From an uncultured Alphaproteobacteria bacterium (GTDB lineage Bacteria > Pseudomonadota > Alphaproteobacteria > Rs-D84 > CACZYB01), in NCBI GenBank assembly GCA_934246625.1, contig CAKQHZ010000001.1, positions 232,338 to 296,337 of the forward strand: 64,000 nucleotides of DNA, written 5' to 3'. This document shows, piece by piece, positions 8,684 through 38,354 of the stretch. Made by a program: the position numbers and the translations under genes. Under the pieces are notes generated by a model, which was not told where the DNA came from, did no database searches, and saw only the letters and a program-made list of their open reading frames with translations. How positions within the stretch are numbered: the stretch's first letter is position 1; each line of letters opens with the position of its first letter.

Positions 8684-9610
8684 TTATTTTTTACAATAAT
8701 TTTCTTTTTTTGCATCTTCTGTAATTTCTTTTAATTTTATTTTCAAATCTTTATACATTTTAAAAACTATAACTTTAGTTTTTTTTAAATTTTTGTTTGG
8801 ATTTTCATTAATATCTAAAATTATACTTTTAATTTTTTCTTTAAATCGTTTATGAACTGACAAAGATTTATCATTTGAAATTTTTATCGTTAAAATTTCT
8901 TTTTTAACTTTATCTTGTTTTTTATGTTTTTCAAATTCTGTTAAAAGTATTATATTATCTTTCTTTAAAAATAATGACATTAATGCTTTTAATAAATTTA
9001 TTTTTAATTCTTTTGCGTTTTCAAAATTATTATCAAAAAAATCTAAAATTAACAGCAAATTGCTTCTAAATGTATCAAAAAATGACTTCGTAGCATCACT
9101 TTCGTTATAAAAAAATATTTTACCATGACTAATTTGATTTCTGATTTTTGTAATTTTTTCAGGAATAGATCTACACTTTATGTTTTCATAATTATAAACA
9201 AAATGTTTTTGTAGTATTTCACTTATTTTTATAAATAACATAAAAATTTTTTCTTTTTCTTCTAGATAAAATAATTTACGATATTGTGAATATTTTTTCT
9301 TTCCTAATAATGTTTTTAATATACTATCAATTTTATTTAAATTATATGAATTTATAAAATTTTGGCGTTCCAAACAATTAGATATTTTAATAGATTGTAA
9401 ACTTTTTAAAAGCATACGATTGTCTTTTATTAAATCAATTTCTTTTTTATTATAATGATTTTCAAAAATAGTTTTTACATTTTTACTTTTTGTAGATAAA
9501 ACAGATTTGAATAAATCTTCAATATTATAATCAAATTTTCCGTTATTTTTTTCACGTTCAAACAATAATTTAATATCATTAATATAAACATTAGGAAGAA
9601 ATAAAAACAA
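8684..9610 (-). CDS. Hypothetical protein with HEPN-like Rx4HG motif (Abi_2/AbiD-AbiF-like candidate)
   Basis: KIRNQISHG lies mid-protein in an otherwise low-complexity K/N-rich helical protein. Assignment rests on the motif only. Confidence 0.3.
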   Translation of the reverse strand: MFLFLPNVYINDIKLLFEREKNNGKFDYNIEDLFKSVLSTKSKNVKTIFENHYNKKEIDLIKDNRMLLKSLQSIKISNCLERQNFINSYNLNKIDSILKTLLGKKKYSQYRKLFYLEEKEKIFMLFIKISEILQKHFVYNYENIKCRSIPEKITKIRNQISHGKIFFYNESDATKSFFDTFRSNLLLILDFFDNNFENAKELKINLLKALMSLFLKKDNIILLTEFEKHKKQDKVKKEILTIKISNDKSLSVHKRFKEKIKSIILDINENPNKNLKKTKVIVFKMYKDLKIKLKEITEDAKKENYCKK

Positions 9611-9753: not shown

Positions 9754-10086
9754 TTATATAAATAAGTTTCTTTTTAAATATAAAATAAAAGTATTTTTTA
9801 ATTTCTGACTCTGTTTTGATAAAAATTCTTCTCTAAATACATCTGTCCCAAAAATATCAAAAGGATAACTTGGCAAGTTATTTGAGTTATTTTTTTCTTT
9901 TTTATACCATTTTACAACTTGTTCAAAAGAATTTCTTGCTTCGTTATCAAGCATTTCATACTTATATTCATAATCTTTTGTTGCATCAAAAAAACTATGC
10001 AAAATTGCATTATCTAAAATATAAATATAAGATAATATTTTACTTCTTACTGATTTATTTGAAAAAATCTCCATAATAATTTCCAT
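9754..10086 (-). CDS. Hypothetical protein (possibly the 5' part of a frameshifted gene continuing into 8684-9610)
   Basis: ORF only. It is in a different frame from the downstream ORF and separated by 143 bp with no intervening start. Confidence 0.25.
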   Translation of the reverse strand: MEIIMEIFSNKSVRSKILSYIYILDNAILHSFFDATKDYEYKYEMLDNEARNSFEQVVKWYKKEKNNSNNLPSYPFDIFGTDVFREEFLSKQSQKLKNTFILYLKRNLFI

Positions 10087-12095: not shown

Positions 12096-12110
12096 TTTTT
12101 TATCCTTTCA

Positions 12111-13043
12111 TTAAAATCCATTTAAAGTTTCAGCACATAAAGTAAGCCAACTATTATCATTAAGAATCTGCTCCATTCTATCAGGGTTTTCGTAAGCAAG
12201 CTTTACAGATTCTTTCATAAATGTATAAGCTTCAGCTCCATGAGAATAAGTACTTTCTATCATTTTATATGCAATATTAATAGGAGTTCCATTTCTTCTA
12301 TGTCCAACTATAACGTTCATTATAGTAGCAAAATTAGAACATATTCTTCCTCCCATAGTTTCCAATATTCGTTCTTTTTCAGCAAGTCTTTTAGCTTCTT
12401 CAGGATGTTCTTCTGCCCACTTCCGATTTATTTCAGCTTGTCTTGCTAATTCAGCTTCTTTTTCTTTTTTAGCTTTTTCTCTAGCTGCTTTTTCATTGGA
12501 TATACTCTTATCTATTTCAGAAACAATTTTTAAAATTTCAGATAATTTAGCATCTAAACCTGCAATTTGTTCATCAGTTAATGAGCTACTACAAATAAGA
12601 TTTTCAAATTCTTGTATAGCATTTTCAGCTTTATCTATAACTGCTGAAATTTTTTTGTTTGCATCATATCTATTTTCATATCCCAATTGACTTAATTTTT
12701 TTAATGATTCATTAAACTTTTTATTTAAATTTTCAACTTTCCGTATATATTTTAAATAAACTCCAAAATTTTTTCCGAAATTATCATAAAAATTTAAAAA
12801 ATCATATTTATCATCAAATCCCCATTCTTTTTTGTAATCTGTATATTTTTGAAAATATGTTCTTATATCAGCATAAGAATATCCTTGATTCAAATATTTT
12901 TGATATGTTTCTAAATCGAAATGGCAAGAATAATCTCCACAAATAAGACTATATTGTTCTTCATCATCACTTTGAGACCTTGCAAAAACCTCATTAAAAT
13001 TTAAGCAAAATAAACAAAGTATTAAAAAAATTTTTTTTAACAT
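12111..13043 (-). CDS. Secreted coiled-coil protein, hypothetical
   Basis: Signal peptide MLKKIFLILCLFCLNFNEVFA and a Lys/Glu-rich coiled-coil core. The stop overlaps the upstream gene start. Confidence 0.35.
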   Translation of the reverse strand: MLKKIFLILCLFCLNFNEVFARSQSDDEEQYSLICGDYSCHFDLETYQKYLNQGYSYADIRTYFQKYTDYKKEWGFDDKYDFLNFYDNFGKNFGVYLKYIRKVENLNKKFNESLKKLSQLGYENRYDANKKISAVIDKAENAIQEFENLICSSSLTDEQIAGLDAKLSEILKIVSEIDKSISNEKAAREKAKKEKEAELARQAEINRKWAEEHPEEAKRLAEKERILETMGGRICSNFATIMNVIVGHRRNGTPINIAYKMIESTYSHGAEAYTFMKESVKLAYENPDRMEQILNDNSWLTLCAETLNGF

Positions 13044-13681
13044 ATTTTTTCGGCCTCCTTCTTTACTTTTTTAACTGAAAATTTTTTATCCCATTCATCC
13101 AAAACATCGTCATCATCTACAGTTTTCATAAGATACATAAGATGGTCTAAATCTTCATCTGATACATGTGTAATTATATAATTTGTTTGGCAAATACATT
13201 TAAAATCTCCTCCACATGTTGGAACAAAAGCTGTTCTCATTTCTTTTCTAAACTCATCATAATCAACAGGTTTTTCCTCTTTTTTAGGACTATTTGGATT
13301 AAAACATTTTTCTTCAGCTTTCTTAGATATAGCTTGTATAGATGGTTTATTCCAGAAATTATTAAATTTAGGAGTTTTATTTATTTCTATCGCTTTTTGG
13401 AAAATATTTGCAACATCTTTCAAGTCTGTTTCAGATAAATTATTAGCAGTATAATTTGTTTTACATTTACAATCTATATCATCACAAGATTTTAGCATTA
13501 CATCTCTAAACAATTCTCTAATTTCTTCAGAAGAAGCTTCTTGTAAATTTATTTTTTGTTCATTAGATTCTGTTTCTGTTATACTATTAATCCCATTTAA
13601 ACTTTTATCAACAATATCCTTTAATTGAACACATGCTGCAAAACTAAATACCATAGGAATTATAAACAATTTTTTATTCAT
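13037..13681 (-). CDS. Secreted Cys-rich protein with an internal duplication, hypothetical
   Basis: Signal peptide, then two copies of a C-x-C-x-T-N-Y...S-E/D-x-D-L-x module (DIDCKCKTNYTANNLSETDLKDV and GDFKCICQTNYIITHVSDEDLDHL). Confidence 0.35.
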   Translation of the reverse strand: MNKKLFIIPMVFSFAACVQLKDIVDKSLNGINSITETESNEQKINLQEASSEEIRELFRDVMLKSCDDIDCKCKTNYTANNLSETDLKDVANIFQKAIEINKTPKFNNFWNKPSIQAISKKAEEKCFNPNSPKKEEKPVDYDEFRKEMRTAFVPTCGGDFKCICQTNYIITHVSDEDLDHLMYLMKTVDDDDVLDEWDKKFSVKKVKKEAEKIC

Positions 13682-13698
13682 TTTATTTCTCCTTATTC

Positions 13699-14157
13699 TT
13701 ATATTTGTTTAATTAAAAATTTTAGCCCTGAAACTTTTGTATCAAGCCAATTTTCATTAGATAACGGATTTTTCTCTTCATTCTTACGAGAACTTCCATT
13801 ATAATCACATTCCACTTCTGATAAAAATATACCAAAACAATAAGTATTATTAGATTTCAGTTTTTCTAAATTTTTACAATCGTCTATAAAACTACTTCTT
13901 TTATTTGTATTACCTTGATTAATTTTATCATATTTAAATTCAATATAATAATTAATATTATTCACAACAAAATACATATCAACATCATGACCATTACGAT
14001 GCTCTTCTGTATGAAGTTTTTGTAAATTTTGTTTTAATAAACCATCAGATACATAATTTCTGAAATCATTTTCATCTTCTGGGTGAAAATTAAGATTTTC
14101 AATTATTTTAATTAAAACGTTTAACATTGTTCTTCCTTGTTTATAATTAAACTTCAT
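13699..14157 (-). CDS. Hypothetical protein
   Basis: ORF only. It is the first gene of the minus-strand 14157-to-11529 cluster. Confidence 0.3.
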   Translation of the reverse strand: MKFNYKQGRTMLNVLIKIIENLNFHPEDENDFRNYVSDGLLKQNLQKLHTEEHRNGHDVDMYFVVNNINYYIEFKYDKINQGNTNKRSSFIDDCKNLEKLKSNNTYCFGIFLSEVECDYNGSSRKNEEKNPLSNENWLDTKVSGLKFLIKQI

Positions 14158-14195
14158 ATTAAATCCAGTCGATTTTTGCTATTTTTAATATACAC

Positions 14196-14319: not shown

Positions 14320-14405
14320 TTTGTCATATTTAATTTTCACAACAAACATTAGGTAAAATCTGGTAGTTCTTATAGTTGTAAAAACAACAAATAGGAGCTA
14401 AAAAA

Positions 14406-14993
14406 ATGATTTATGGATATACCAGAGTTTCAACTGAACTACAAAACACCGAAAATCAAAAACACGAAATTCAAACCTTTGTAAAGTCGCAGAAAATCAA
14501 GATTGACAAGTGGGTGGATGAAATAATTTCTTCCCGAAAATCATTAAAAGAAAGGCAACTGGGTAAACTTTTAAAACATCTTAAAAAAGGGGATATTTTG
14601 ATTGCTTCGGAACTTTCAAGACTTGGCAGAAATTTGCTTGAAGTTATGGGAATTTTGCAAAGCTGTTTGGAAAAAGATTGCCAAATATGGACCTTAAAAG
14701 AAAACTATAAACTTGGTGCAGATATACAGTCAAAAGTCCTTGCATTTGCGTTTTCGTTGGCTGCTGAAATTGAGCGACAACTTATTTCTCAACGGACAAG
14801 GGAGTCATTAAAAAGGATAAAAGATGAAGGTAAACATCTTGGCCGGCCATTTGGATTTAGTTATAAAAAACTTGATGCAAAGAAAGGTAAAATCCAAGAA
14901 TTACTTTCAAAAGATATTTCCAAAGCCGAAATTGCAAGGCTTCTAGATTGTTCTTGGATAACACTTCACAGGTATATACGAAAGTCATTGTAA
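14406..14993 (+). CDS. Serine recombinase (resolvase/invertase family)
   Basis: N-terminal MIYGYTRVSTELQN with the catalytic Ser, SELSRLGRN, and a C-terminal HTH. Confidence 0.8.
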   Translation: MIYGYTRVSTELQNTENQKHEIQTFVKSQKIKIDKWVDEIISSRKSLKERQLGKLLKHLKKGDILIASELSRLGRNLLEVMGILQSCLEKDCQIWTLKENYKLGADIQSKVLAFAFSLAAEIERQLISQRTRESLKRIKDEGKHLGRPFGFSYKKLDAKKGKIQELLSKDISKAEIARLLDCSWITLHRYIRKSL

Positions 14994-15309: not shown

Positions 15310-17901
15310 CTAATATTTCGATAATACTGTAATTATCTCCTGTTTTATTTTCTGTGGAAAATCGTAATTTATCCAATCTGGATTGTTATTAAACCAAGAC
15401 AAGCATTGTTCCTGAGTTAAGTTATCACTTGTCATGTATTCAAATATATAGGATACTGCCGTACGAGAAAAACCTAAATATAACAATGATAACTGTGTTT
15501 TTTGACTAACACCGAATTCCAAGAAAACTGAAAAATCTTGAATTTCTTGAACTAAATCATTTCTATTAATACTCGTCAAATAATATTTCAATACATCTGA
15601 ATAGCATTTAAGATATTTTGGGGCTGTATATCTTGCAAATTTTTCTATTAATTCCATTGTTTCCCTGATCAATGTATTTGTATTTAGTGAATCAGAATAA
15701 TTCCTTGATTTTATATAGTTAATTCTGTTTGTTATAATTCTCTTTAATGGATACCCTCTCATCCAATTCACTACTATAATTGAGCAACTATATAACGAAC
15801 GACTTGAGTAATAAATTCGAGTTAAATGATTATTGATTCTTTGAAACGCTTTGTTATAGATACCAACAGCATTTTCACTAGCAGGATCGCATAGTAATAG
15901 CTCCTCAATATTCTTTTTTTTATTTTTATTGCGTTCTATAAAATAATTATACAGTCTAATTATATGCATAGAATTTATGCCTGGATTATTTTCTATAATA
16001 TCCAAAGGGAAGGGTAAATTTTGATAAATATTTGCAATCTCGCTTTCTATCTCATCAATGTTAGGAAAGAAATTACTCCATTTATATTGTTTTATTGTCT
16101 TATATCTTCCATATTGTGCCACTAAATATGACACAAACTGATCAAATAAATGATTAGGCTGTGCGTTTATATCTTGACATTTTATATAGTTTAAAAAACT
16201 TGTTGTCTTAAACTCTTCATTATCGATAAATTTCCTAATGTAGTATTTCTGTCTTTTCTTTGGAGCTTGTCCATCCGTCCAGATATTTTTATCGTTGGGA
16301 TCAATACAGATTATATTACCTTGAAATTCAGTTCCCCATCGTCCTGCTCGTCCCGCTAAATTCCAAAAATCAGCATTTGACATTAACTGTTGTTTCCCTT
16401 TTTTAGGGCCTCGCATAAATATACTTCTACACGACAAATTAACACCTTCAACCAATGTAGAGGTACAAACTAAATGTGTAATAATATTTTCATTGAATAA
16501 TCGTTCTATTTCTGCTTTTATTAAAATAGGCATATTTCCATAATGAAAAGCTACACCACGTTTTAGAACTTTACATAGAACATATTCTTCATGGATAGTT
16601 TTCTTACATAAATCAATTAATGAATTTAGTGCTTCATCGTTTTTATTGTTATCTTCACCCAACAAATCACATATTAACTGAGCAATCTTTTCAGCATCTG
16701 CAGCACCATTTACATATATAATATTACCTTTAGCAATTATATTTTGATTATGGGTTAATGCATCGACCATATAAGCAATTCTTTTTTGATCAGAATTGGG
16801 GGATGATTTAAGAGAAATATTATTCAAACAATATTCTTCATTACCACTTATCAGCTTCAAAACCCATTTCTTAGATGAATGAGGCTGTTGTTCTACCCAC
16901 AGAATGTTCTGATTAACCGTCAGTTCTTCACCTTTGATACAATGTGTTTGTTTTTTCTCATCTATATCTTCAAGTAATCGTTCTGGATTAGCAGTAAATG
17001 GGCTAACAAAAACTAATTTAAGATTACTATTTTCAAATATTCCCCATTCTATAATTTGTTGCAATAAAAGTCCACGATTATCATCACCTATCTTATAGGC
17101 TTCGTCAATAATCATTGCAAATATATTTAATTCAAAATTCAACGAAGAAAGTAATAGATAAAAACGTTCTTGCGTAAATACGAAAATATTTGATTTATTC
17201 CAATCTAAAATATCATTTATTGGCATAGATGTCACATTGACTTTTTCTTCCAGAGCATTATCGTTTATTAGTTTTTTAAAATCTTCTTCTAATTCATATA
17301 TTAAAGCTCGCGTAGGAACAATATATACTATATTTACTTTGTTATTTTCTTTTATTTGATCGATAATCCATTGTTTTACTATAAATGTTTTACCTGCAGC
17401 TGTTGGAGCTGTAACACTCAAATATTTGTAACATTCCAAACTTCTCCAAAAATTATTTTGAAATTTATTCGCAAATATTTTCTTTCCGTTGTTTGTGTCT
17501 ATAAGATTTTCTTTTCTACATCTTGTCCAAAACATTTTAGATGAAAAATTTAGACGGTTTTCTATATGTCCTTCTATAAGGTTTCTTTTTTCTGCTAAAT
17601 TAATGGCCGGAATGTTAGATAAAGAATTAAGAATAATGGTCGCCATATCTCTATGTTCAGGTGATACAGCACAAGATATACATGTCTGGGTAATTCTTAA
17701 AACCTTATCAAAATTAGAAACATCTTTTGCTAAAATACTTGCACATAGTAGCAAATATCCCCAATCTATATCTGCTTGCGTATCTTTTTCCTTAATAAAT
17801 ATGCCATCGAACTGTTCTTCAACAGATAAAAGGAGAACCTTTAAATACATATTACTAAAGTATTGGTTATTATTTATCCATTCCAATAAAGTTTCTTGCA
17901 T
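15310..17901 (-). CDS. Ski2-like SF2 helicase, candidate Hachiman HamB
   Basis: Helicase motifs are TAPTAAGKT (I), PTRAL (Ia), IIDEAYK (II), SPFTA (III), FHYGNMP, TSTLVEGVNL (V) and QLMSNADFWNLAGRAGR (VI), after a roughly 160-aa N-terminal domain. The start is 3 bp from the upstream DUF1837-like gene. Confidence 0.5.
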   Translation of the reverse strand: MQETLLEWINNNQYFSNMYLKVLLLSVEEQFDGIFIKEKDTQADIDWGYLLLCASILAKDVSNFDKVLRITQTCISCAVSPEHRDMATIILNSLSNIPAINLAEKRNLIEGHIENRLNFSSKMFWTRCRKENLIDTNNGKKIFANKFQNNFWRSLECYKYLSVTAPTAAGKTFIVKQWIIDQIKENNKVNIVYIVPTRALIYELEEDFKKLINDNALEEKVNVTSMPINDILDWNKSNIFVFTQERFYLLLSSLNFELNIFAMIIDEAYKIGDDNRGLLLQQIIEWGIFENSNLKLVFVSPFTANPERLLEDIDEKKQTHCIKGEELTVNQNILWVEQQPHSSKKWVLKLISGNEEYCLNNISLKSSPNSDQKRIAYMVDALTHNQNIIAKGNIIYVNGAADAEKIAQLICDLLGEDNNKNDEALNSLIDLCKKTIHEEYVLCKVLKRGVAFHYGNMPILIKAEIERLFNENIITHLVCTSTLVEGVNLSCRSIFMRGPKKGKQQLMSNADFWNLAGRAGRWGTEFQGNIICIDPNDKNIWTDGQAPKKRQKYYIRKFIDNEEFKTTSFLNYIKCQDINAQPNHLFDQFVSYLVAQYGRYKTIKQYKWSNFFPNIDEIESEIANIYQNLPFPLDIIENNPGINSMHIIRLYNYFIERNKNKKKNIEELLLCDPASENAVGIYNKAFQRINNHLTRIYYSSRSLYSCSIIVVNWMRGYPLKRIITNRINYIKSRNYSDSLNTNTLIRETMELIEKFARYTAPKYLKCYSDVLKYYLTSINRNDLVQEIQDFSVFLEFGVSQKTQLSLLYLGFSRTAVSYIFEYMTSDNLTQEQCLSWFNNNPDWINYDFPQKIKQEIITVLSKY

Positions 17902-17904
17902 GTT

Positions 17905-18873
17905 TTATCCTTTATCTGGAAAAATTCCCAAACATTTATGAAATTCTGTTCTTAATTCATTTACAGATTTAAAAGGAATACAGAAGAAATGTATAACAAA
18001 AGAGTCTAATCCTTTCATTTTTAGTTTATTTTGAATAACTATATTCAATTTCGGTATTTCTTTTCGAATTTTCTTTTCTACATCTGAAATAGTTTCTTGA
18101 TTGGGAGATTGAGGATAATAATTATCTTGTTCAAAGCCAACAAAAGCTATGGCTCTTATTTCGAGTTTATTAAATTTAGGACTATCTCTATCTAAATACT
18201 CCTTAAGTACATCTTCCATTTTTTTATCATTAAGATCTATAAACTGCTTTAATAGAATAAAATCCCTATTATCTGCGGACAAGATACCACCATTCGCATT
18301 AAGTAAGGTATTTAAGCTATTTAAGCAATCTTCAACTGCGGTAGGAAAATCTTTATAAACTTTTGATTCTCCCCAATGTAAAGCTAAATTATTATCCTCT
18401 GTTAATCCAAGATATACTCCATCTGCACCATGGAAGTACATATTATGATTTGTTTTTAAATTCATTTTACATATCACTTGGGGAATTTTTAAAAATTTTT
18501 CTGCTAATACAAATAAAATTAGTTCACCTAATTCACCTGACTTAACACTATCGACAAATGTTTCCTGTGCTTCTTGCCGTAATTTCATCATATTTCTGGT
18601 TGTTGAATTTTGGTTATCCCTATTTTTTGCTTCAACAATACGACTTCTTGGAATTACATAATCAATTATATCACAAACCACACAATCCACAAAATCTTTT
18701 GTTCGATCCCGTCCGTTGCCATCTAATTCAATACAATGCCAATAAGATATTGTTTCTGTTTCATCTATCTTTTTTTCTTTTTCTACAGTGTGTAAGAAAG
18801 CTTCATAGCTATTGAAATCACCCCTAGCTAATCTATTTAATATACTCAATAAAAAATCTTCGTTCTCAGACAT
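17905..18873 (-). CDS. PD-(D/E)xK-like protein, candidate Hachiman HamA (DUF1837-like)
   Basis: The E ... D ... ExK pattern (GELGE, HGADGV, HWGESKVY) sits directly upstream of, and translationally coupled to, the helicase. Confidence 0.45.
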   Translation of the reverse strand: MSENEDFLLSILNRLARGDFNSYEAFLHTVEKEKKIDETETISYWHCIELDGNGRDRTKDFVDCVVCDIIDYVIPRSRIVEAKNRDNQNSTTRNMMKLRQEAQETFVDSVKSGELGELILFVLAEKFLKIPQVICKMNLKTNHNMYFHGADGVYLGLTEDNNLALHWGESKVYKDFPTAVEDCLNSLNTLLNANGGILSADNRDFILLKQFIDLNDKKMEDVLKEYLDRDSPKFNKLEIRAIAFVGFEQDNYYPQSPNQETISDVEKKIRKEIPKLNIVIQNKLKMKGLDSFVIHFFCIPFKSVNELRTEFHKCLGIFPDKG

Positions 18874-18900: not shown

Positions 18901-19257
18901 TTATAACTTATTGCAATAGTGCATTAATTCATCGACTTTAGCAACGATACGTTTTTGCTCAGTTAGTGGAAGAAGGGGAATTAAAATATTATGTAACACT
19001 CCAGAGGATAATCTCTGTATTCCAATACCTTTTCCTCCGATAAAACCAGTTATTTTATAAAAGAATAATACATAATCAGCCCTTTTAGGCTCTCCACGTT
19101 TAACTTCCTTACCCCTAATCATTATTCTACCTTTAGTAAAGCTAACTTCTTGCTTTATTTGAGTCTTATTATCCCAACCTCTTTCAATAATGCTTGGTGT
19201 AATTTCAATACGTTTAGTATCCTCTTCGGATAATTTATTATAATCAACTTTAACCAT
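18901..19257 (-). pseudogene. Chimeric remnant of a type I restriction-modification locus (HsdR_N-like N-terminus fused to the HsdS C-terminal conserved tail)
   Basis: LSEEDTKRIEITPSIIERGW...KRADYVLFFY is HsdR_N-like. ILIPLLPLTEQKRIVAKVDELMHYCNKL is the hallmark HsdS C-terminus. Neither domain is complete. Confidence 0.5.
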
Positions 19258-19390
19258 AAGACTAACCTTTTGTTAGGTTAACAACCAATTTTCTCTATTT
19301 TACTTAATTGTATAGCATCTTTCAAGGAAAATAATCTCTTGTTTATGTAAATATTCTTTGATAAAATGTTTCCGTACATGGAGGTAAAAT

Positions 19391-20012: not shown

Positions 20013-20939
20013 CTATTTATGTGTTATCTCAATCTTCTTTTTTGATGCAAGAGGTTCAGCCTTTACAACAACCTCATTTTCTTTCTCTTTAAGTTCAATT
20101 TTTGGCATAGATATAAGGATATTATCCTTAAAAAAATCAGGTTCAAGTTTACATGCAAACTCTACAAATTCCTTTATATATCTTAACTTTTGACGTTTGT
20201 TATCATTTTTAACATTAGGTTGAGCTAAAATATCCTTTGAAATTTTTTGAATATTGTCTGTATTATGAAATTTTGAATAGTCATCATCAAGAGATAGACC
20301 TAACTTATTAAAATTTTCCTTTAAAAAATTTCTTTTTCTTTTGGTTTCAGCCTCCCCGTTATTGGCTTTTAAAAGCATTGAATCCAATATATATTCAAGA
20401 GTATGTTTCGGTGGTTCAATTATTTGAATTCCACCTACTTTTTTGAATAGTTCAGAACCAAAAGTTTTTTCAAGTAGTTTATACTTATATTCCATAGATT
20501 TCAATCTGTCCGATATTTCCTTTTGAACATTGTATTTTGCAATATTTTGATTTAACTCTCCATATAATTTTATAAATTCAGCCATCGTTTGAGGGTCATT
20601 ATCTTTTGCAATAAACCATTCATCAGGAATATTAAGCATAAAGCCCAAATTACAAGAAGATAAAGGCCTTCTATATCTTATAACTTCAATTTCCGAGTAT
20701 AATTTGCATAATCTGTCGAATTTTTCGTTGAAATCCTTAATTTCATTCATTTTGCCTAACGCCTCATAATAACTATTAGTATGTAAGGAATAGCACAAAT
20801 ACCGCCTTTTTCCTTCCACTCTTGACAATTCTATTCTACAGTAAAAGACATTATTCCTCAACCATAAATGTGGTTGGATTTTGCTTTGTGCTATACAGTT
20901 TGCCATGCACTTTTTATCCATTTGCAACTTTCCTAACAT
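20013..20939 (-). CDS. Hypothetical protein with an integrase arm-binding-like N-terminus
   Basis: N-terminal NNVFYCRIELSRVEGKRRYLCYSLHTNSYYEALGKMNEI resembles an arm-type DNA-binding domain. No catalytic R/HxxR/Y motifs were found. Confidence 0.25.
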   Translation of the reverse strand: MLGKLQMDKKCMANCIAQSKIQPHLWLRNNVFYCRIELSRVEGKRRYLCYSLHTNSYYEALGKMNEIKDFNEKFDRLCKLYSEIEVIRYRRPLSSCNLGFMLNIPDEWFIAKDNDPQTMAEFIKLYGELNQNIAKYNVQKEISDRLKSMEYKYKLLEKTFGSELFKKVGGIQIIEPPKHTLEYILDSMLLKANNGEAETKRKRNFLKENFNKLGLSLDDDYSKFHNTDNIQKISKDILAQPNVKNDNKRQKLRYIKEFVEFACKLEPDFFKDNILISMPKIELKEKENEVVVKAEPLASKKKIEITHK

Positions 20940-21349: not shown

Positions 21350-22378
21350 ATGGAAAATAAAGGAAATATTATAATATACAAAGATGAAAATGGCACAGTT
21401 AAGGCTAATGCTTTATTTGCCAATGAAACTATATGGCTTACACAAAAAGGAATGAGTGAACTTTTTGATATAGACCCTTCTGGTATAAGCAAACATATAC
21501 AAAATATATTTAATGACGGAGAATTGGCAGAAAACACGACTCTTGCAAAATTTGCAACTGTCGTAAATCGAGGTTTTCGTGGTCCAATAGAAGAGGAACT
21601 TGATTACTATAATCTTGATATGATTATTGCTGTCGGATATAGAGTAAATTCCAAAAAAGCAACTGCTTTTCGTATTTGGGCGACAAATGTTTTAAAAGAA
21701 TTTATTACAAAAGGCTTTATCCTTGATGATGAACGCTTAAAAAATGGAAATATGTTCGGTAAAGATTATTTTAGAGAATTATTAGAACGTATTCGTGATA
21801 TTAGGATTAGTGAAAAAAGACTATATCAACAATTAAAAGATATTTACGCCCTTTCCGCTGATTATACAAAAGATAATAAAGATGCCTTACGATTTTTTGC
21901 AACAGTCCAAAATAAAGTGCATTTTGCAATTACTGGAAAAACTGCTCCTGAAATTATATATGAAAGAGCAGACTCTGAAAAATCTAATATGGGACTTACA
22001 TCTTGGAAAAATTCACCAAACGGAAAAATCTCCAAATCAGATATTGGTATTGCTAAAAATTATCTTAATGATTCCGAATTACAAGATTTAAGGGGAATAA
22101 TAAATATGTTCCTTGATTATGCAGAAATGCAAACAAGAAATAACAAACTAATTTATATGAAAGATTGGGAAAAACGTCTTGACGACTTTATAAAATTTAA
22201 TGAAAAGCAAGTTTTATCAAATGCCGGAAAGATATCTCGTATGACAGCACTAAGAAAAGCCTTTTCTGAATATGATAAATATAAAGAATTATTAAGAATA
22301 GAAGAAAAGGAACAAGCTGAAAAAGAAATAGAAACAGATATAAAAGAATTAAATGAAATTTTAGTGAAGAATAATTAG
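21350..22378 (+). CDS. RhuM-family protein (virulence/DNA-binding family common on islands)
   Basis: N-terminal IIIYKDENGTVKANALFANETIWLTQKGMSELF pattern, and the family-typical length. Confidence 0.55.
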   Translation: MENKGNIIIYKDENGTVKANALFANETIWLTQKGMSELFDIDPSGISKHIQNIFNDGELAENTTLAKFATVVNRGFRGPIEEELDYYNLDMIIAVGYRVNSKKATAFRIWATNVLKEFITKGFILDDERLKNGNMFGKDYFRELLERIRDIRISEKRLYQQLKDIYALSADYTKDNKDALRFFATVQNKVHFAITGKTAPEIIYERADSEKSNMGLTSWKNSPNGKISKSDIGIAKNYLNDSELQDLRGIINMFLDYAEMQTRNNKLIYMKDWEKRLDDFIKFNEKQVLSNAGKISRMTALRKAFSEYDKYKELLRIEEKEQAEKEIETDIKELNEILVKNN

Positions 22379-22435: not shown

Positions 22436-23596
22436 ATGTCAAAACAATTTAACTTCACCAAAAAAGATATTGATGCATTGCCAGTGCCAAACAAAGGTTT
22501 TGCCACCTACTCTGACACAACGGAAAAAGGGTTGAAACTCTACATTACTCCAACAAGGACAAAGACTTTCTTTATTCGTAAATTTATAAATGGGCGGGAT
22601 GAACGGCTTATCATAGGTCCGTATCCGGATTTGACTATTTCACAGGCGAGGGAGAAAGCAAGAATTTTAAAGGGGACTATTGCAAACGGCATCAACCCAG
22701 CGGAGGAGAAAAGAAAACTTCGCCGTGATATGACCGTTGCGGAATTTTTTGATTACTACATTACAAATTACTCCACAAAGAAAAAGCGCCCTAATTCCAT
22801 CAGGTCGGAAAAAACTTTGTATAAAAATCATATTGCAGATTTTCTCGGGTATAAAAAGATGACCTTGGTGCAAAAGGCGGACATTGAACGGATTTTAAAG
22901 CCCTTGGTAAATCAAGGCAACTTTGCCACAGCAAACAGGATACTTGCCCTGTTTTCTGGTATGTATAACAGAGCGATTGAATGGGGTTATCCCGATGAAA
23001 ATCCGACAAAGGGGATAAAAAAGCAACGCGAAAAATCACGGGAGAGATTTTTGCAACCTGATGAATTGCCACGATTTTTTGAGATGTTAAACTCTGTTAA
23101 AAATGAGAATTTTAAAAACTATATATTGCTTTCACTTTTTACGGGGCAACGAAAAAATAATGTGCTTTCAATGAAATGGGAGCAGATAGATTTGTCGCTT
23201 GGGATTTGGTTTATACCACACACGAAAAATGGAGAAAGTTTGAATTGTGCGTTGAGTGATGAGGCAATAAAACTTCTCTCTGATATAAAACAAAATACAA
23301 CCTCCGAGTGGGTTTTGCCAAGTGAAACTTCCTCCAGCGGGCATTATGAAGAGCCGAAACGGGCTTGGAGAACCTTGCTTAAAAATGCAGGGATTGAAAA
23401 TTTACATCTTCATGATTTAAGGCGAACCCTTGGAAGCTATCAGGCGATAGGCGGTTCAAGTTTACAAATAATTGGTCAATCTTTGGGACATAAATCCTTG
23501 CAATCTACACAAATATACGCCCGCCTTATCAAAGCTCCCGTCCGCCAAAGCACAAACATGGCCGTCGCGAAAATTTTGGAGTATGCGAAGAGGTAG
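22436..23596 (+). CDS. int: Tyrosine integrase, P4-like (N-terminal arm-binding DUF4102-type domain)
   Basis: KGLKLYITPTRTKTFFIRKF arm domain. Catalytic motifs are HDLRRT and LGHKSLQSTQIYARL (the Tyr nucleophile). Confidence 0.9.
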   Translation: MSKQFNFTKKDIDALPVPNKGFATYSDTTEKGLKLYITPTRTKTFFIRKFINGRDERLIIGPYPDLTISQAREKARILKGTIANGINPAEEKRKLRRDMTVAEFFDYYITNYSTKKKRPNSIRSEKTLYKNHIADFLGYKKMTLVQKADIERILKPLVNQGNFATANRILALFSGMYNRAIEWGYPDENPTKGIKKQREKSRERFLQPDELPRFFEMLNSVKNENFKNYILLSLFTGQRKNNVLSMKWEQIDLSLGIWFIPHTKNGESLNCALSDEAIKLLSDIKQNTTSEWVLPSETSSSGHYEEPKRAWRTLLKNAGIENLHLHDLRRTLGSYQAIGGSSLQIIGQSLGHKSLQSTQIYARLIKAPVRQSTNMAVAKILEYAKR

Positions 23597-27940: not shown

Positions 27941-29749
27941 TTATGATTCTTTAATCTTATTCAACCAAAATAAATACCATTTATCCTGAATATGTTCTTT
28001 AATTTTATTCTCAATACTAAGAGTATTCAATTTGTTATTTTCTAAACAAAAATTATATAGAATTAAAAATTTAGATAAAGGATAACCCTTTTTATGTTTA
28101 TTTTTAGGAAATAAATATTCTTTTAAATAATGTATATTTTTACATGATCTAATTTCATCCATATTATAAATTACAGAAGATGCATCATTATAGTCACGTT
28201 GTAAAATGAAACTACGTAAATCATTGTATTCATCTTTTAAGTCTGGTAATAAACGAAAAAGAATAGATGAAACTTGTCTAGTTAAAAATGAATTTTTGAT
28301 CCAAAGATTTCGATATTTATTTATATGTTCATAGATAGATTTTGGTGTTTCATATTTAGCAGCAAACCATAAGTAACTATAAAAATTAAATTCTTTATCC
28401 TTAATAGTTAATGATTTTAAATATTTAGATATATAATTTATATTTTCAATATCCACTCTTGAATATCCAATATTCCAATCTATAATTAAAGCAACCAATA
28501 AAAATAACGTTATATCATCATATCTTGTAATATTTATCAATGATTGAAAAATTTTATATGTTTTTTTAGTATATCCTAATTTATATAAATATTGACATAC
28601 ATTAGTTCTCAGATCTGAATATTCTTCAAAAATTCTTGGTAAATATTTTAAGATTTTAGTAAAATTGTTATTTCCAGCAATAGTCAAAAATCTTTTTAAA
28701 ACCTTATCAAAATTTTTATATTGTTTATTCTTGTTCCAATGTCTTCTAAAATATTTCATAAACTCTTTTTCTTTTGGGGGATTTTTGTCAAATATATTTA
28801 ATTGAATATTTTCGTCAAATAAAAAATGTCTTTTTGCCTCAGAAGCATCAAGAATCTTTGTTTTTGACATATTAAGAGACAATCCTCTACTTTTTAAAAC
28901 ATCAGATATATTGCTTAAAATTGACTTAGCCTCCCTTATATCATCAATACCAATAACAATATCATCCATCCATCTTACAAAATTTTCATTTATTTGATAT
29001 TTTAATAAGTAATCAATTTCAAAAAGAAAAGAATGTGCTAATAGTCTAATTGCTTCTAAATTAATTGTAGGCATTCCAATTGATTGATTGGGTAAATAAT
29101 CTGGTTTCCATGATAAATCTTCAATTATATTAAAAATTAAATCTAATAAAACTTCGTCACATTTGATATACCCAGAAACTACACTTCTTAACTCATTTAA
29201 CCGTATACTATCAAAATAATTTGATAAATCTGTTATAATAATATATTTTTTTGTTTTTGTAAATTGAAGAATTTCATTTTGATATATTTTCCATTGTTCA
29301 AACCAATCATTATAATCCGTATTTATTTCATGAGGAAGTTTAATAGAAGAACTTTTATCTCTAGAATAATAAGCATGATTTGAAGGTGCCTGTTTTTCTA
29401 AATCATTACAAAAAGGTTCTATAAGAGCTTGTAAAATAAGAGTGTCACTAGGAGATAAAATAATCATATGGCGACAAATGCCAAATTTTTTCTCTAATGT
29501 ATATATAATTGGTATTTGCGATTTATATTGACCAGAAATAATTTGTTCATTAATTTTACTTGTATTATAATCTATTCTTCTATGAAAATCATAAAAATCA
29601 TGTAAATCAAGAATACTCATACTCCTTACTTGACTCTTAACTTTATGTTTCCATAATGTTTTTAAAGTATCCTTTTTAAATGGATTTTCTAACTGTTTTT
29701 GCCTTTTTTTAAATCTTAACGTTATAGGTTTAGACATTTTAAAACTCAT
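27941..29749 (-). CDS. Reverse transcriptase, stand-alone Abi/defence-type (AbiK/Abi-P2/UG-like), with an RT domain plus a roughly 300-aa helical C-terminal extension
   Basis: RT motifs are FGICRHMIILSPSDTLILQALIEP (1/2), IITDLSNYFDSI (A), GMPTINLEAIRLLAHSF (B'), FVRWMDDIVIG (C, with MDD replacing YxDD) and SLNMSKTKIL (D). There is no maturase, endonuclease or intron-like domain. Confidence 0.8.
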   Translation of the reverse strand: MSFKMSKPITLRFKKRQKQLENPFKKDTLKTLWKHKVKSQVRSMSILDLHDFYDFHRRIDYNTSKINEQIISGQYKSQIPIIYTLEKKFGICRHMIILSPSDTLILQALIEPFCNDLEKQAPSNHAYYSRDKSSSIKLPHEINTDYNDWFEQWKIYQNEILQFTKTKKYIIITDLSNYFDSIRLNELRSVVSGYIKCDEVLLDLIFNIIEDLSWKPDYLPNQSIGMPTINLEAIRLLAHSFLFEIDYLLKYQINENFVRWMDDIVIGIDDIREAKSILSNISDVLKSRGLSLNMSKTKILDASEAKRHFLFDENIQLNIFDKNPPKEKEFMKYFRRHWNKNKQYKNFDKVLKRFLTIAGNNNFTKILKYLPRIFEEYSDLRTNVCQYLYKLGYTKKTYKIFQSLINITRYDDITLFLLVALIIDWNIGYSRVDIENINYISKYLKSLTIKDKEFNFYSYLWFAAKYETPKSIYEHINKYRNLWIKNSFLTRQVSSILFRLLPDLKDEYNDLRSFILQRDYNDASSVIYNMDEIRSCKNIHYLKEYLFPKNKHKKGYPLSKFLILYNFCLENNKLNTLSIENKIKEHIQDKWYLFWLNKIKES

Positions 29750-29819: not shown

Positions 29820-32800
29820 TTATCCAAACAATCTATCCAGTTCTTCTTCTAAAATACCTTCCTTAACAAGAGGAAGTGTATCAACTTGTTTCAAATTATG
29901 TTTTTGAATGAAATTTTCATTATCGAAACCAAGGATATATGATATAGCAATACGATAAATTATTTCTGTCGGTGCTAATCCATAAACTTGCTTTTCAAAA
30001 ATATGCTTTAATCTATCTTTTGAATCAGGATAAATCTTTATCAATTTAGGATTATTATATAATCGTTTTACAATTTCAGTGATATATAATCCTGATTTCA
30101 TATATAAATCAATAAATGTTTTATCTGGATCTGTAAAGCAATCTGGACATTCTTTTTCTAAATTATCTACCATTTCTTTTACTACTTTTTTAGGCGTAAA
30201 GATTTGGTTTGTTTTTTGTGGTGGAATATAATCAAAAATATCCTCAGTGTTATTTTCATCAAAATAATTGGAAAGTTTAGTTTTCAAATTTAAGAATTCC
30301 TTAATGGAATCATTGAAAACAATAGGATCAAATAGATGTCCATCAAAATGCTCCATTTTTCCTGTTTTTTCATCTTTATAATCTCCACCATCACGTAAAA
30401 ACTTAAATTCAGCAAGAGAAATACTTGTAACTTCTTTAAATACTTCATCTGGTATAATTGTATCAAAGTTTTCTAATGTTGTGTTTTCATTACCATAAGC
30501 CATTAAAAATGAAGGTATTGTTCTTGAAAAACCTCTTAAATAGTCTCGAACTGAATCTTCTATGGCTGTTTTTTCTTTTTGCCTTTTATCTGTTTCTACT
30601 CTTTCAATAATTGTATTTCCTGTATTTTGAATAAGTTCAGGAAGTTTATTCTTCAATTCTGAAATAAATGTTGTTTTGTTTTCAGCAACTTTCAAATCAT
30701 ATAGTTCATTAATTTTATCTTTTTCAAAATCAGATGCTGTTTTTAATTCTTTTTTTCGTTCTAATTCTGTCTGATTTTGTAAGATTTTATAATTACCATA
30801 TTCTTTATCAAAAACCTGATTTGTTGTATTTAATATTGTTTGAGTAATTTTCTTTAAAGAGCTGGTTGTTACAGCATTTTTGTAGTTTGTTTTTACTGTA
30901 TCAACAAAAGTTTCTTCAACTTTAGCTTTAAATGTATCTTTTAATTCTTTTAATTTCTCATCATCTTGTTCAGGTTGGTTATTTTGCAATTCATTTACAG
31001 TTTCAACTAAATCTTTATTAATACTTTCATAAATCTTATCTCCAAATATTTCATTCGCTTGACCAATAATAAAGTTTTGTGAAAGTTCTACTTCTCCATC
31101 TTCATTTAAAGATAAATCATCTTTTGTATTTTGATTAATTGGTAAAGGTTCTTTTGTCTTTTCAAATTTTTTTATAATATCAACAACTTCTTGTGGTGCA
31201 TTGAATATGTTTCCAATATTCTGGAATAAGAAATTACTCATAAAACCACGTTGAACGACTTCTTGTGCATGGATTTTACGAGGAATAGATAATACCTGTT
31301 CAGCCTTAAGAAGTATCATTTCACCATCCTCATCTTCACCATAAACAGGGAAAAAGTTTAAAAGTTCTCTAACATTTTGTTTCCTTGTATCACTATCACC
31401 TTGTCCACTTGTTGTATTTATACTTAAATCGTTAGCAAATTTTTCAACAATTTCCAAAGTTCTTGCTGGATCAAAATCAAATACATAAGCATTTTCTTTT
31501 CTAAAGAATTGTCTATCTTTATGGAATATACAAGGATTTTGCGACCTGAAAGCTGTTTGCATATATAATGCTGGACTTTTAACATTACCAAGCATTAAAA
31601 CTGCTGTCCATTCAGGAATTGTAATTCCAGTAGTTAATTGTCCTACAGATAGAGTAATTGTCTTTTCATAATTCTTTATGCCATTAACAACTTTATTAAA
31701 TGCATTTTCACGTTCTTCGTCTTCATTAAGTTTACCATCCCCAGCGGCAACAATAATTTCATAATTTTTAAATATAGGGTGATTTTTTAATTTTTTTGCC
31801 AAAGCTTTAACACTACCAACTCTATCTAAAAACCAGAATGTATGATTAAGTTCATCTCTTAATTCTTGAGTTGAAAATGGAAATTTAGTTTTTATAGTTA
31901 ATGCATCCAAAAATTTATCAACGGCTTCATCATACTTAAAACTTCCATTTTCATTTGTTGAAAAGAATTCATTCAAATCAAAAGCATATTCTCTAATATC
32001 ATCATCAGATAAATTGCATCCCTGTTTTACCTTGTCTTCAATAATATCTGACATCTTATATGTATAAAGATTTAATTGAGGTAAGTTTTGATAAGGATTT
32101 TCTTCTTCGTTTGATGTATCCCAATTTTTTTTTGCATTTTGTTCATCAGCATAAGTCCAATTAAATATAGCTTTCTCTTCAAATTTATTATTTGCTAAAG
32201 CTTTAAATGGCGTTCCAGATAAATGAAGTGTAAATTTTCTTTTTATTTGATCAAAGGCAATGTCAGTATGATATGTATCAACACCTTCATGTGCTTCATC
32301 AATTACTAATAAATCCCAGTCTAAATCTTTAATCTCTTTAAGTTTATCATATTTTCCACCAAAGTAGATTGACCCTTTTAAATCTTGTAATGATACAAAT
32401 TCAATACATCCTTTATGATTTCCATCGTTAAGTTTATTTAAGTATTCTTCTCTTGATAGAACATATTCTTTACTTTTCAAAGTACTAACTTGACTAACAA
32501 AATAATATCCTGAATTGGTACCTAAAAACCTTTCATAATCAGCATACCAAGAATTAGCAATAGCTGGTCTATTCGTTACAATTAAAACTTTTTTTGCATT
32601 TATCTGTTTGCATAAGTCATAAGTTGATAATGTTTTACCAAATCTAGGTTTTGCATTCCATAAAAATTCTGGTTCATCATCTTTATGACTTTCAAAATAT
32701 TCTTTTGTTTGAGAAACAGCATTAAATTGCTCATTTCTAAGTTTGTATTCTATTACAGGTTTTGTTTCTAAAATTCCTCTGTTTTCTTTAAATTCATAAA

Positions 32801-33119
32801 ATTTTTCTTTTGAATCTTTTGGGGATATTTTAAACCATTCTGTATCCGGTTTTCTTTCAATATTGTTTTTCTTAAGGTAAGCGTGAAAATCTGTATCATG
32901 GAAAACCTCGCCAGAACCATCCTCATATATAGCATTAGATTTCCATTCCAATACAAATTTTACATCTGCAGTTTGAGTTTGCTGTTTTATACGAGTTTCG
33001 ACATCTTGTTCTGTAAAACCAATCTTTGTCCATCCATCATGTTCTTTAATCTCAGGAGTTGTATATGCATAACACATAGGGACAATTTTCTTTAATGTTT
33101 TAATATTTAGTTTTACCAT
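29820..33119 (-). CDS. Multidomain protein: N-terminal T5orf172 (GIY-YIG-like) domain, SF2 helicase (ResIII-type, DEAH), long linker, and a C-terminal degenerate MTase N-lobe
   Basis: CYAYTTPEIKEHDGWTKIGFT...VETRIKQ is T5orf172-like. Helicase motifs are Walker A NAKPRFGKT, LLVIDEAHEG and LSGTPF. The C-terminus carries IFTPKKVVKEMV (motif X), FIDLYMKSGLYI (degenerate motif I) and QVYGLAPTEIIYRIA (motif II), with no NPPY. The start is taken at the internal MVKLNIK, 1 nt after the upstream gene's stop. The track start at 33155 overlaps the upstream gene. Confidence 0.7.
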   Translation of the reverse strand: MVKLNIKTLKKIVPMCYAYTTPEIKEHDGWTKIGFTEQDVETRIKQQTQTADVKFVLEWKSNAIYEDGSGEVFHDTDFHAYLKKNNIERKPDTEWFKISPKDSKEKFYEFKENRGILETKPVIEYKLRNEQFNAVSQTKEYFESHKDDEPEFLWNAKPRFGKTLSTYDLCKQINAKKVLIVTNRPAIANSWYADYERFLGTNSGYYFVSQVSTLKSKEYVLSREEYLNKLNDGNHKGCIEFVSLQDLKGSIYFGGKYDKLKEIKDLDWDLLVIDEAHEGVDTYHTDIAFDQIKRKFTLHLSGTPFKALANNKFEEKAIFNWTYADEQNAKKNWDTSNEEENPYQNLPQLNLYTYKMSDIIEDKVKQGCNLSDDDIREYAFDLNEFFSTNENGSFKYDEAVDKFLDALTIKTKFPFSTQELRDELNHTFWFLDRVGSVKALAKKLKNHPIFKNYEIIVAAGDGKLNEDEERENAFNKVVNGIKNYEKTITLSVGQLTTGITIPEWTAVLMLGNVKSPALYMQTAFRSQNPCIFHKDRQFFRKENAYVFDFDPARTLEIVEKFANDLSINTTSGQGDSDTRKQNVRELLNFFPVYGEDEDGEMILLKAEQVLSIPRKIHAQEVVQRGFMSNFLFQNIGNIFNAPQEVVDIIKKFEKTKEPLPINQNTKDDLSLNEDGEVELSQNFIIGQANEIFGDKIYESINKDLVETVNELQNNQPEQDDEKLKELKDTFKAKVEETFVDTVKTNYKNAVTTSSLKKITQTILNTTNQVFDKEYGNYKILQNQTELERKKELKTASDFEKDKINELYDLKVAENKTTFISELKNKLPELIQNTGNTIIERVETDKRQKEKTAIEDSVRDYLRGFSRTIPSFLMAYGNENTTLENFDTIIPDEVFKEVTSISLAEFKFLRDGGDYKDEKTGKMEHFDGHLFDPIVFNDSIKEFLNLKTKLSNYFDENNTEDIFDYIPPQKTNQIFTPKKVVKEMVDNLEKECPDCFTDPDKTFIDLYMKSGLYITEIVKRLYNNPKLIKIYPDSKDRLKHIFEKQVYGLAPTEIIYRIAISYILGFDNENFIQKHNLKQVDTLPLVKEGILEEELDRLFG

Positions 33120-33120
33120 A

Positions 33121-33501
33121 TTACACCATCTCCTTTTTATCCAATTGAATTCCATTTACTTTTGTTTTTAATTGTTCAATTAGTTTATATTTATGTTTTT
33201 TGATATAATATTTACGTAAAAATAAAGAAATAATTTCTATAAATAATCCAATAAAATAAATATACACGTTATCTATATATAAAGTTTCAAAAATATTAGA
33301 AATGGTAAAAGATAAGATACCAACACATTTTAAATATCTTTCTTTTAAATATTCTTCTATCAAATTTGTATTACAATCTAAATATGTTGAACTTTTTGCT
33401 AAAATATGCTCATCTGAATCTAAATTACATATTATTAATATAATACCAAATATTTGCAAAATAAGTTTTAATACAGTAGATAAACTTAAATAAATAAACA
33501 T
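33121..33501 (-). CDS. Small membrane protein (3 predicted TM), translationally coupled to the helicase gene
   Basis: Hydrophobic segments LILQIFGIILIICNL, VGILSFTISNIF and IYFIGLFIEIISLF. The TAA stop lies 1 nt before the downstream ATG. Confidence 0.35.
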   Translation of the reverse strand: MFIYLSLSTVLKLILQIFGIILIICNLDSDEHILAKSSTYLDCNTNLIEEYLKERYLKCVGILSFTISNIFETLYIDNVYIYFIGLFIEIISLFLRKYYIKKHKYKLIEQLKTKVNGIQLDKKEMV

Positions 33502-35554: not shown

Positions 35555-36163
35555 TTATATATGCTTTTGTAAATGATTTTTTATATATTTATTGAGTGTT
35601 GGTTTAGTAATTTTTAGTTTTTTTGCAACAATATATTTGGGTAATCCTAATCTTAAAAGACTAATGATTTTATCTTTTTTCTCTTCAAGTTTATTGTGCT
35701 TATTTTTACTTCCCTTCGGTCTTCCAATTGTGGAACCTTCTAAAAGTCTGCGTTTCAATCCCTCTATAGTCCTTTGACTTATCAAATCTCTTTCCATCTC
35801 TGCAAATGCACTTAAGATTGCTATCATCATCTTTCCCATAGGGGTGTTATCAATCGACATTCCTTGCTTTACAAGATAACAATTCACACCTTTTTTCACA
35901 AGCAACTGACAAGTATTTATAACATCACTTGTTGATCTTCCAAGTCTAGATAGTTCTGATGTTATAAGCACGTCTCCTTTATCCAATATTTTTAGTAAGG
36001 TTCCCAGTTTACGTTTCTTTGCAAGAATTGTGCCACTGACACCTTCATCAATATATTCTTTATCTATTTTCCAATTCATTCTGTTTACAAAATCTATTAC
36101 TCCAAGTTTTTGACTTTCATAGTTTTGCAATTCTGTAGATACTCTGTAATATGCATATATCAA
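35555..36163 (-). CDS. Serine recombinase (resolvase/invertase), paralogue of the 14406-14993 gene
   Basis: MIYAYYRVSTELQN, SELSRLGRS, and a C-terminal HTH. Confidence 0.8.
   Translation of the reverse strand: MIYAYYRVSTELQNYESQKLGVIDFVNRMNWKIDKEYIDEGVSGTILAKKRKLGTLLKILDKGDVLITSELSRLGRSTSDVINTCQLLVKKGVNCYLVKQGMSIDNTPMGKMMIAILSAFAEMERDLISQRTIEGLKRRLLEGSTIGRPKGSKNKHNKLEEKKDKIISLLRLGLPKYIVAKKLKITKPTLNKYIKNHLQKHI

Positions 36164-38278: not shown

Positions 38279-38354
<76 letters not shown>

Follow-up and report, generated by a model that had tools for sequence, protein, structure and literature searches.

In a 64,000-nucleotide stretch of DNA from an uncultured animal-gut alphaproteobacterium (contig CAKQHZ010000001.1, positions 232,338 to 296,337; hereafter the window), two adjacent genes, hamA and hamB, very likely constitute a canonical type I Hachiman anti-phage system, subtype I-A as defined by Cui et al. 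2025, judging from their sequences. Membership of the pair in family and fold, intact HamA catalytic residues and HamB ATPase motifs, tight coupling, purifying selection and conservation as a mobile cassette are demonstrated for this locus. The six-frame list of open reading frames (ORFs) gives two co-oriented genes, each starting with ATG:

17905..18873, minus strand: hamA, a 322-amino-acid (aa) DUF1837 PD-(D/E)xK nuclease, the predicted effector
15310..17901, minus strand: hamB, an 863-aa Ski2-like superfamily 2 (SF2) helicase, the predicted sensor/regulator

The hamA stop codon ends at 17905 and hamB starts at 17901, leaving a gap of 3 bp (17902-17904, 'AAC'), and the last codons of hamA, ahead of hamB, include a Shine-Dalgarno-like AAAGGA. 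This spacing together with the AAAGGA is a layout typical of translational coupling. In the relatives L081-L090, hamA also lies upstream of hamB on the same strand with gaps of 0-3 bp. An initial annotation had proposed a Hachiman-like two-gene module from the gene sizes of 322 and 863 aa, the 3-bp gap and the tight coupling; the ORF list bears out this layout, and the module itself is supported by full-length profiles, intact motifs and recurrent pairing with HamA in unrelated genomes. By its sequence the locus is of an already-known kind, as standard defence-system profiles of the PADLOC type recognise the pair at once, and a Pfam tag is already present on the identical protein in public assemblies.

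HamA matched the Pfam family PF08878 (HamA/DUF1837) at 6.2e-55 with 187 bits (cut-off 25), covering positions 1-230 of the 230-position profile. It also matched 23 PADLOC HamA models, the best of which was HamA1 (PDLC00163) at 3.5e-106, nearly end to end, and it was matched by no model in an NCBIfam search. DUF1837, which had been expected for the 322-aa protein, is its sole Pfam domain, and the protein is without an N-terminal fusion. The E...D...ExK pattern described in the initial annotation is present in HamA as three motifs, which were examined for conservation in 27 homologs:

18523..18537, minus strand: motif 1, G113-E-L-G-E117 (GELGE, 113-117), with acidic residues E114/E117; G113, E114, G116 and E117 invariant
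18418..18432, minus strand: motif 2, H148-G-A-D151-G (HGADG, 148-152), with the predicted catalytic Asp; G149 and D151 invariant
18361..18372, minus strand: motif 3, G168-E169-S-K171 (GESK, 168-171), the ExK of PD-(D/E)xK; K171 invariant, E169 in at least 90%

The counterparts of E169 and K171 have been mutated in characterised systems: E138/K140 of ECOR31 are essential (PMC12278908) and mutation of E150/K152 of DEC14B abolishes defence (PMC11914072). Likewise, mutation of D90, E93, D127, E147 and K149 of the S. thermophilus HamA abolishes defence, and the spacing in our protein, E117-34-D151-18-E169-x-K171, parallels the E93-34-D127-20-E147-x-K149 of that protein (PMC13064477). Close relatives of HamA (62-89% identity) come from metagenome assemblies only. 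Less similar homologs (39-44% identity, 313-320 aa), which form the next tier, come from Serratia, Ewingella, Yersinia, Klebsiella, Morganella and Ferribacterium; their NCBI names are either 'HamA C-terminal domain-containing protein' or 'DUF1837 domain-containing protein'. A single-sequence search of the PDB with HamA gave no match at E<=0.01. The AlphaFold2 model of HamA (mean predicted local distance difference test score, pLDDT, 87.6; predicted template modelling score, pTM, 0.88) was then compared with solved structures. Its fold is that of solved HamA proteins, with a restriction-endonuclease-like core; the closest solved HamA by fold was 8zue_A, which was likewise the sole significant match in Foldseek. 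Structural matches of the model also include the PD-(D/E)xK restriction endonucleases AspBHI, MspJI, PaqCI, N.BspD6I and FokI.

HamB matched the PADLOC model HamB1 (PDLC00186) at 1.5e-278 with 924 bits, residues 3-861 aligning with positions 4-859 of the 864-position profile. With these E-values for HamA1 and HamB1 and coverage of both profiles over their full length, the resemblance of both proteins to their families is far beyond chance. In Pfam, HamB matched just the generic DEAD, ResIII and Helicase_C families. The helicase motifs were inspected in an alignment of 30 homologs:

aa 148, minus strand: Q-motif glutamine Q148; invariant
17386..17409, minus strand: motif I/Walker A, APTAAGKT (aa 165-172); A165, P166, T167, G170 and K171 invariant
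17095..17106, minus strand: motif II/Walker B, DEAY (aa 266-269); D266, E267 and A268 invariant
16528..16548, minus strand: FHYGNMP (aa 452-458), Ski2-type motif IV region; F452, H453, Y454, G455, N456 and P458 invariant
16339..16362, minus strand: motif VI, NLAGRAGR (aa 514-521); N514 through R521 all invariant

Motif II thus reads DEAY, not DExH. The initial annotation had anticipated a HamB profile match and a Ski2-type helicase with an FHYGNMP motif and a QxxGRAGR motif VI. The end-to-end HamB1 match, the FHYGNMP sequence and, through profiles and fold, the Ski2-type call all held; of motif VI, the GRAGR core (aa 517-521) stood and the glutamine did not, as its place is taken by N514. A search for HamB homologs returned 1852 proteins below 1e-10, those listed being 855-890 aa long and about 40-44% identical. 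Several of the HamB homologs share contigs with HamA homologs, in Ferribacterium (103,529 bp), Ewingella (264,498 bp) and Morganella (32,756 bp), and also in Lelliottia and Yersinia. The AlphaFold2 model of HamB (pLDDT 85.8) begins with a helical N-terminal domain (1-131); RecA1 and RecA2 follow, with a beta insertion (319-363) between them, and the C-terminal third (566-862) is all-alpha. The predicted fold confirms the 'Ski2-like' assignment. The best PDB match of HamB by sequence was 9wh1_B (2.9e-37, residues 148-819). As an aside on this entry, its label in the PDB reads 'DNA polymerase theta (Helicase domain only)' and the protein is in fact HamB of a K. pneumoniae trypsin-HamAB complex, a label which could mislead automated annotation.

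Ski2-like helicases also serve in DNA repair, as do archaeal Hel308/Hjm and bacterial Lhr, and hamB might accordingly be a housekeeping helicase of the Hel308/Lhr type that neighbours an unrelated small nuclease by chance. HamB did register against the NCBIfam Hel308 equivalogs, at 73-80 bits where the cut-offs are 887-1216, scores more than 10-fold below cut-off, and against the ligase-associated Lhr-like DEXH model TIGR04121, at 43 bits where the cut-off is 850. In contrast, the HamB1 match extends end to end and includes the N-terminal helical domain. The same picture emerged from structure: the HamB model aligns with ECOR31 HamB (8vx9_B) over 767 residues and with Hel308 and Hjm structures over only about 550. 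The repair helicases are without an N-terminal HamA-binding helical domain, a partner nuclease and a mobile-island location, whereas hamB is always paired with a HamA homolog, is found on mobile elements and not in core synteny, and is absent at this site in related genomes. A housekeeping role for hamB is therefore extremely improbable. Such a role was one of two outcomes that the initial annotation had named as overturning its proposal; the other, no significant DUF1837 match for the 322-aa protein, is contradicted by the Pfam result.

We next considered the subtype of the Hachiman pair. Type II Hachiman includes HamC (DUF3223), according to Payne et al. as summarised in PMC11914072. Neither Pfam nor PADLOC gave a match to DUF3223/HamC among the ORFs of 8.7-24.4 kb, and the absence of HamC near the pair argues that it is not type II. 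The type I PADLOC models also outscored the type II models, both for HamA (353 vs 333 bits) and for HamB (924 vs 872 bits). Since HamA consists of DUF1837 only and has an intact active site, the scheme of PMC11914072 would place it in type I-A, which accounts for 86% of the HamA sequences in that study. The likeness to the type I-A system of DEC14B (Cui et al. 2025, PMC11914072) is drawn from its description, not from sequence: both have two genes, a DUF1837-only HamA with an intact (D/E)xK site (E150/K152 vs E169/K171) and an SF2 HamB, and they differ in that the host here is a gut alphaproteobacterium and the window has a G+C content of 29%.

The pair could instead be a non-canonical Hachiman, either type II with HamC/DUF3223 or type I-B/C/D, in which a scaffold DUF1837 accompanies another effector such as a Cap4 nuclease or a trypsin-activated metallo-beta-lactamase (MBL) DNase. 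The type II models, HamA2 and HamB2, score nearly as high as those of type I, and the closest solved relatives come from such systems. By sequence, the closest solved HamB (9wh1_B) belongs to the K. pneumoniae trypsin-HamAB-MBL system (PDB 9WH1), with which our HamB shares FHYGxxP, NLAGRAGR and an alpha-helical C-terminal domain. In that system, the 528-aa HamA carries a trypsin domain at its N-terminus, its DUF1837 is catalytically dead, and the role of effector falls to a separate MBL DNase. By fold, the closest solved HamA (8zue_A) is the Cap4-fused, inactive protein of E. coli K-12 AbpAB, a type I-B Hachiman in which AbpA has a Cap4 nuclease at its N-terminus and its DUF1837 is inactive (PDB 8ZUE, PMC11914072). 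In contrast to AbpA, our HamA has no fusion and its DUF1837 site is intact, and in contrast to 9wh1_A, where the corresponding positions are lost, it stands alone with all catalytic residues and no MBL gene nearby. Neighbouring ORFs gave no match to Lactamase_B (MBL) or to trypsin/protease families in Pfam or PADLOC. The spacer between hamB and the downstream invertase gene contains no ORF of at least 30 aa and is touched only by the tail of the invertase gene and two ORFs overlapping its 3' end. We therefore consider a non-canonical system very improbable and retain the assignment to type I-A.

The genomic contexts of relatives were compared to see how the pair travels. Adjacency of hamA and hamB is kept in at least seven different contexts, which include:

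L082-L084 (HamA 81% identical): hsdR-hsdM-rhuM-x-hsdS-hamA-hamB-...-DUF3768-...-resolvase-...-integrase
L085-L087 (HamA 86% identical): hsdR-(AAA ATPase)-hsdM-rhuM-hsdS-hamA-hamB-DUF3768
L088: hamAB in a type III restriction-modification (R-M) island
L081: hamAB in a region resembling an integrative and conjugative element
L089, Ferribacterium: hamAB about 42% identical, cargo of a filamentous prophage (Zot/secretin/CRI)
L090, Ewingella: hamAB about 42% identical, between replication and portal genes of a P2-like prophage

In this respect hamAB behaves as a mobile two-gene cassette. In L082-L087, hsdS and hamA are only 19-82 bp apart and the operon is seen in at least three variants. The window carries a trace of the same arrangement and of the gene that follows hamB in it:

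18901..19257, minus strand: 118-aa leader ORF, separated from the downstream hamA by 27 bp, in which an HsdR N-terminus is joined in frame to an HsdS C-terminus (hsdR'-'hsdS)
10674-10989, minus strand: frameshifted remnant of a DUF3768 gene, of which an intact copy follows hamB in L081, L082 and L085

In PADLOC, aa 1-67 of the leader ORF match positions 1-67 of the 807-position REase_I profile (1.5e-16), and aa 76-118 match the end of Specificity_I (444-486 of 488). By tblastn against L082/L084, the first part of the ORF (aa 4-66) shares 78% identity with the HsdR start, and its last part (aa 76-118) shares 51% with the HsdS end. Compared with the intact operon of the relatives, this fusion indicates that about 6.8 kb of an R-M operon has been deleted, leaving its 5' end joined to hamAB. 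The best sigma-70-like site of the region lies upstream of the leader ORF:

19297..19325, minus strand: TTGAAA-17-TAAAAT, 10/12 matches

This site is a candidate promoter, the former hsdR promoter, for leader ORF-hamA-hamB. The assignment is a mere suggestion because the number of such sites was not above the shuffled expectation (23 found vs 30.5). A scan of the region for promoters and terminators yielded none that was convincing, with site counts at or below shuffled expectation. Probably, hamAB is transcribed from the promoter of the deleted type I R-M operon.

The repeated linkage raises the possibility that hamAB in this clade may not stand alone and may instead form the distal end of a composite operon of type I R-M and Hachiman, a reading to which we assign a small but appreciable chance. 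Defence genes inside R-M operons are common, for example TgvAB (PMC11411939), and a literature search on Hachiman nested in type I R-M found no specific report. If the coupling is true, HamAB would be set off by the DNA ends that type I restriction leaves in unmodified phage DNA, these being its 3' single-stranded DNA (ssDNA)/DNA-damage signal. Hachiman would then serve as a second line of defence after restriction, and the locus in the window would be a natural 'uncoupled' derivative, in which an in-frame deletion took out the R-M genes and spared the promoter and the 118-aa leader ORF. One point of modest value is that hamAB and type I R-M recur in an operon-like arrangement in the relatives, of which the window holds a natural deletion derivative.

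Decay around the pair suggests another possibility, namely that hamA and hamB have stayed intact by chance in an island undergoing decay and have lost expression or activity, which would make them a silent or non-functional remnant. Of the neighbouring type I R-M operon only the 118-aa scar remains, the DUF3768 gene downstream carries a frameshift, Pfam and PADLOC show no remaining integrase in 8.6-21 kb, and the scan produced no convincing promoter or terminator. However, both ORFs are full length compared with relatives (322 vs 322 aa for HamA and 863 vs 863-869 aa for HamB) and all catalytic residues are kept. The ratio of nonsynonymous to synonymous substitution rates in pairwise comparisons with four relatives was 0.15-0.23 for hamA and 0.08-0.12 for hamB, values which cover the whole divergence and not solely the time since the R-M deletion. 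An identical 863-aa HamB recurs on 8 independent contigs of the assemblies, of which four measure 0.2-1 Mb, and six further places show the same neighbours. In addition, the R-M deletion preserved the reading frame, and the 5' region of hsdR still lies immediately ahead of hamA. A dead remnant is therefore improbable, and the intact type I-A system remains the preferred reading.

How such a system would act can be outlined from characterised Hachiman systems. In ECOR31, HamA and HamB pair as a heterodimer, and HamA is held in check by the helical domain at the N-terminus of HamB; a 3' ssDNA end entering the helicase leads to ATP hydrolysis and HamA activation, phage and host DNA are degraded, and DNA-damaging agents alone suffice as a trigger (PMC12278908). 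In DEC14B and S. thermophilus, DNA cleavage depends on HamB and ATP and is largely non-specific (PMC11914072, PMC13064477), the activity reported for the DEC14B complex being ATP-dependent, non-specific DNA degradation (PMC11914072). HamB of K. pneumoniae, the nearest solved relative, prefers 3'-overhang DNA (bioRxiv 10.1101/2025.09.03.673762). Given the mechanism of these systems, the same logic of sensor helicase and effector nuclease would be expected here, with the caveat that the C-terminal DNA-handling part is unlike that of ECOR31. HamA and HamB would form a 1:1 complex in which the N-terminal helical domain of HamB holds and restrains HamA. Phage infection or DNA damage would provide free 3' ssDNA ends that enter the channel of HamB, a putative 3'-5' DNA helicase, and ATP hydrolysis with the resulting movement would release or activate HamA. 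Active HamA would then degrade phage and host DNA indiscriminately, resulting in abortive infection. Complex formation, trigger, DNA degradation and phage protection at this locus are what we infer from the literature on characterised systems.

Several points weigh against transferring this canonical picture to the pair. The characterised systems are distant: ECOR31 HamA was undetected by the sequence profile of the clade even at E<=1, and ECOR31 HamB matched in RecA2 only (1.3e-13). The ECOR31 system (Tuck et al. 2024, PMC12278908; PDB 8VX9/8VXA/8VXC/8VXY; I-A/III-A) has a HamB of 1174 aa with a C-terminal barrel resembling the oligonucleotide/oligosaccharide-binding (OB) fold, whereas HamB here has 863 aa and its C-terminal third (566-862) is predicted to be all helical with no OB-like barrel. 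Since this barrel is not predicted, the details of DNA sensing may differ. The published systems themselves disagree on the activator, 3' ssDNA vs double-stranded DNA (PMC11914072). Finally, the neighbourhood is decaying, as seen from the R-M deletion scar and the frameshifted DUF3768 gene, and the candidate promoter is weak.

The clade of about 860-aa HamB and 315-aa HamA proteins is well populated, and no member in which HamA is active has been solved or characterised. The solved HamB nearest to the clade belongs to a trypsin-MBL system, and the OB-like domain of ECOR31 appears to be missing from the clade. It would be a reasonable test case for the generality of the 3'-ssDNA trigger model. 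The locus itself adds one Hachiman, in an uncultured low-G+C gut alphaproteobacterium, to a widespread family and nothing new on mechanism.

The hamAB pair sits in a decayed mobile island next to a tRNA-Thr gene. Synteny was examined in 9 alphaproteobacterial metagenome-assembled genomes (MAGs). The product of recJ (39741..41540, minus strand) is 91% identical to that of rumen and gut alphaproteobacterial MAGs, and recJ-mltB-tRNA-Thr is common to the related MAGs, none of which carries the 8-38 kb part of the window, confirming that this region is variable among related genomes. The left border of the older island was not located in this comparison. The 3' part of tRNA-Thr (38279..38354, minus strand) is duplicated in a perfect 54-nt direct repeat (21050-21103 = 38273-38326), which bounds a 17.2-kb integrated island at this gene; a search allowing up to 3 mismatches found no third copy of the tRNA-Thr attachment (att) sequence. 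Close to each end of the island there are arm-type repeats, TTCGGCAAT(G/A) (21226-21251 and 38175-38211). The pair lies just outside this island, 2.2 kb past the distal att copy, in an older segment of about 8.6-21 kb. The window is in this sense a compact example of defence-island accretion at tRNA-Thr. The 17.2-kb island contains the following genes:

21350..22378: RhuM
22436..23596: P4-type tyrosine integrase
35555..36163: second resolvase

A related island is present in L012 at its own tRNA-Thr. Within the 17.2-kb island, a candidate second defence operon spans 27941-35438 on the minus strand and also holds a 126-aa ORF:

34503..35438, minus strand: type II methyltransferase-like gene
33517..34506, minus strand: type II methyltransferase-like gene, Eco57I-type
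29820..33155, minus strand: 1111-aa protein with T5orf172 (GIY-YIG-like) and ResIII/helicase domains
27941..29749, minus strand: defence-associated reverse transcriptase of class UG13a (RT_UG13a; PADLOC 2.3e-178)

We know of no established mechanism for UG13 systems. Beside this operon lies the most AT-rich part of the window, at 19-21% G+C:

25149-27858, plus strand: two overlapping ORFs of 488 and 417 aa

These two ORFs gave no match in Pfam, PADLOC or PHROGs. Searches of PADLOC, Pfam, NCBIfam and PHROGs with the ORFs at 8684..9610, 9754..10086, 12111..14157 and 20013..20939 gave nothing usable.

Relative to homologous loci, a block at 11529-14993, composed of an invertase gene and four unannotated ORFs, is inserted between hamB and the DUF3768 remnant:

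14406..14993: Mpi-like serine recombinase, close to the Mpi 'master DNA invertase' family (268.5 bits vs a cut-off of 272)

This gene is divergent from the four-gene minus-strand cluster (152, 214, 310 and 188 aa), in which no family match was found save a MORN_2 repeat in the 188-aa protein. An invertible promoter under the control of the Mpi-like invertase was considered and rejected: a search of 8.0-21.2 kb found no inverted repeats flanking the hamAB upstream region, and the inverted repeats in this interval are all AT-rich, 70-91% complementary and inside coding sequence.

A 36-nt repeat, GGGAAAGTAACACTTAAAAAAGGGAGTTACCTCCCT, occurs three times at 8418-8585 (two of the copies are identical and one is 72% identical); the copies are spaced 66 nt start to start, with two unrelated 30-nt spacers. 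No cas genes were detectable near these repeats, and the adjacent 308-aa and 110-aa ORFs had no Pfam/PADLOC match. The repeat geometry is CRISPR-like (clustered regularly interspaced short palindromic repeats) and could equally reflect repeated terminator hairpins. Among the loci fetched, the 36-nt repeat is present in this genome only.

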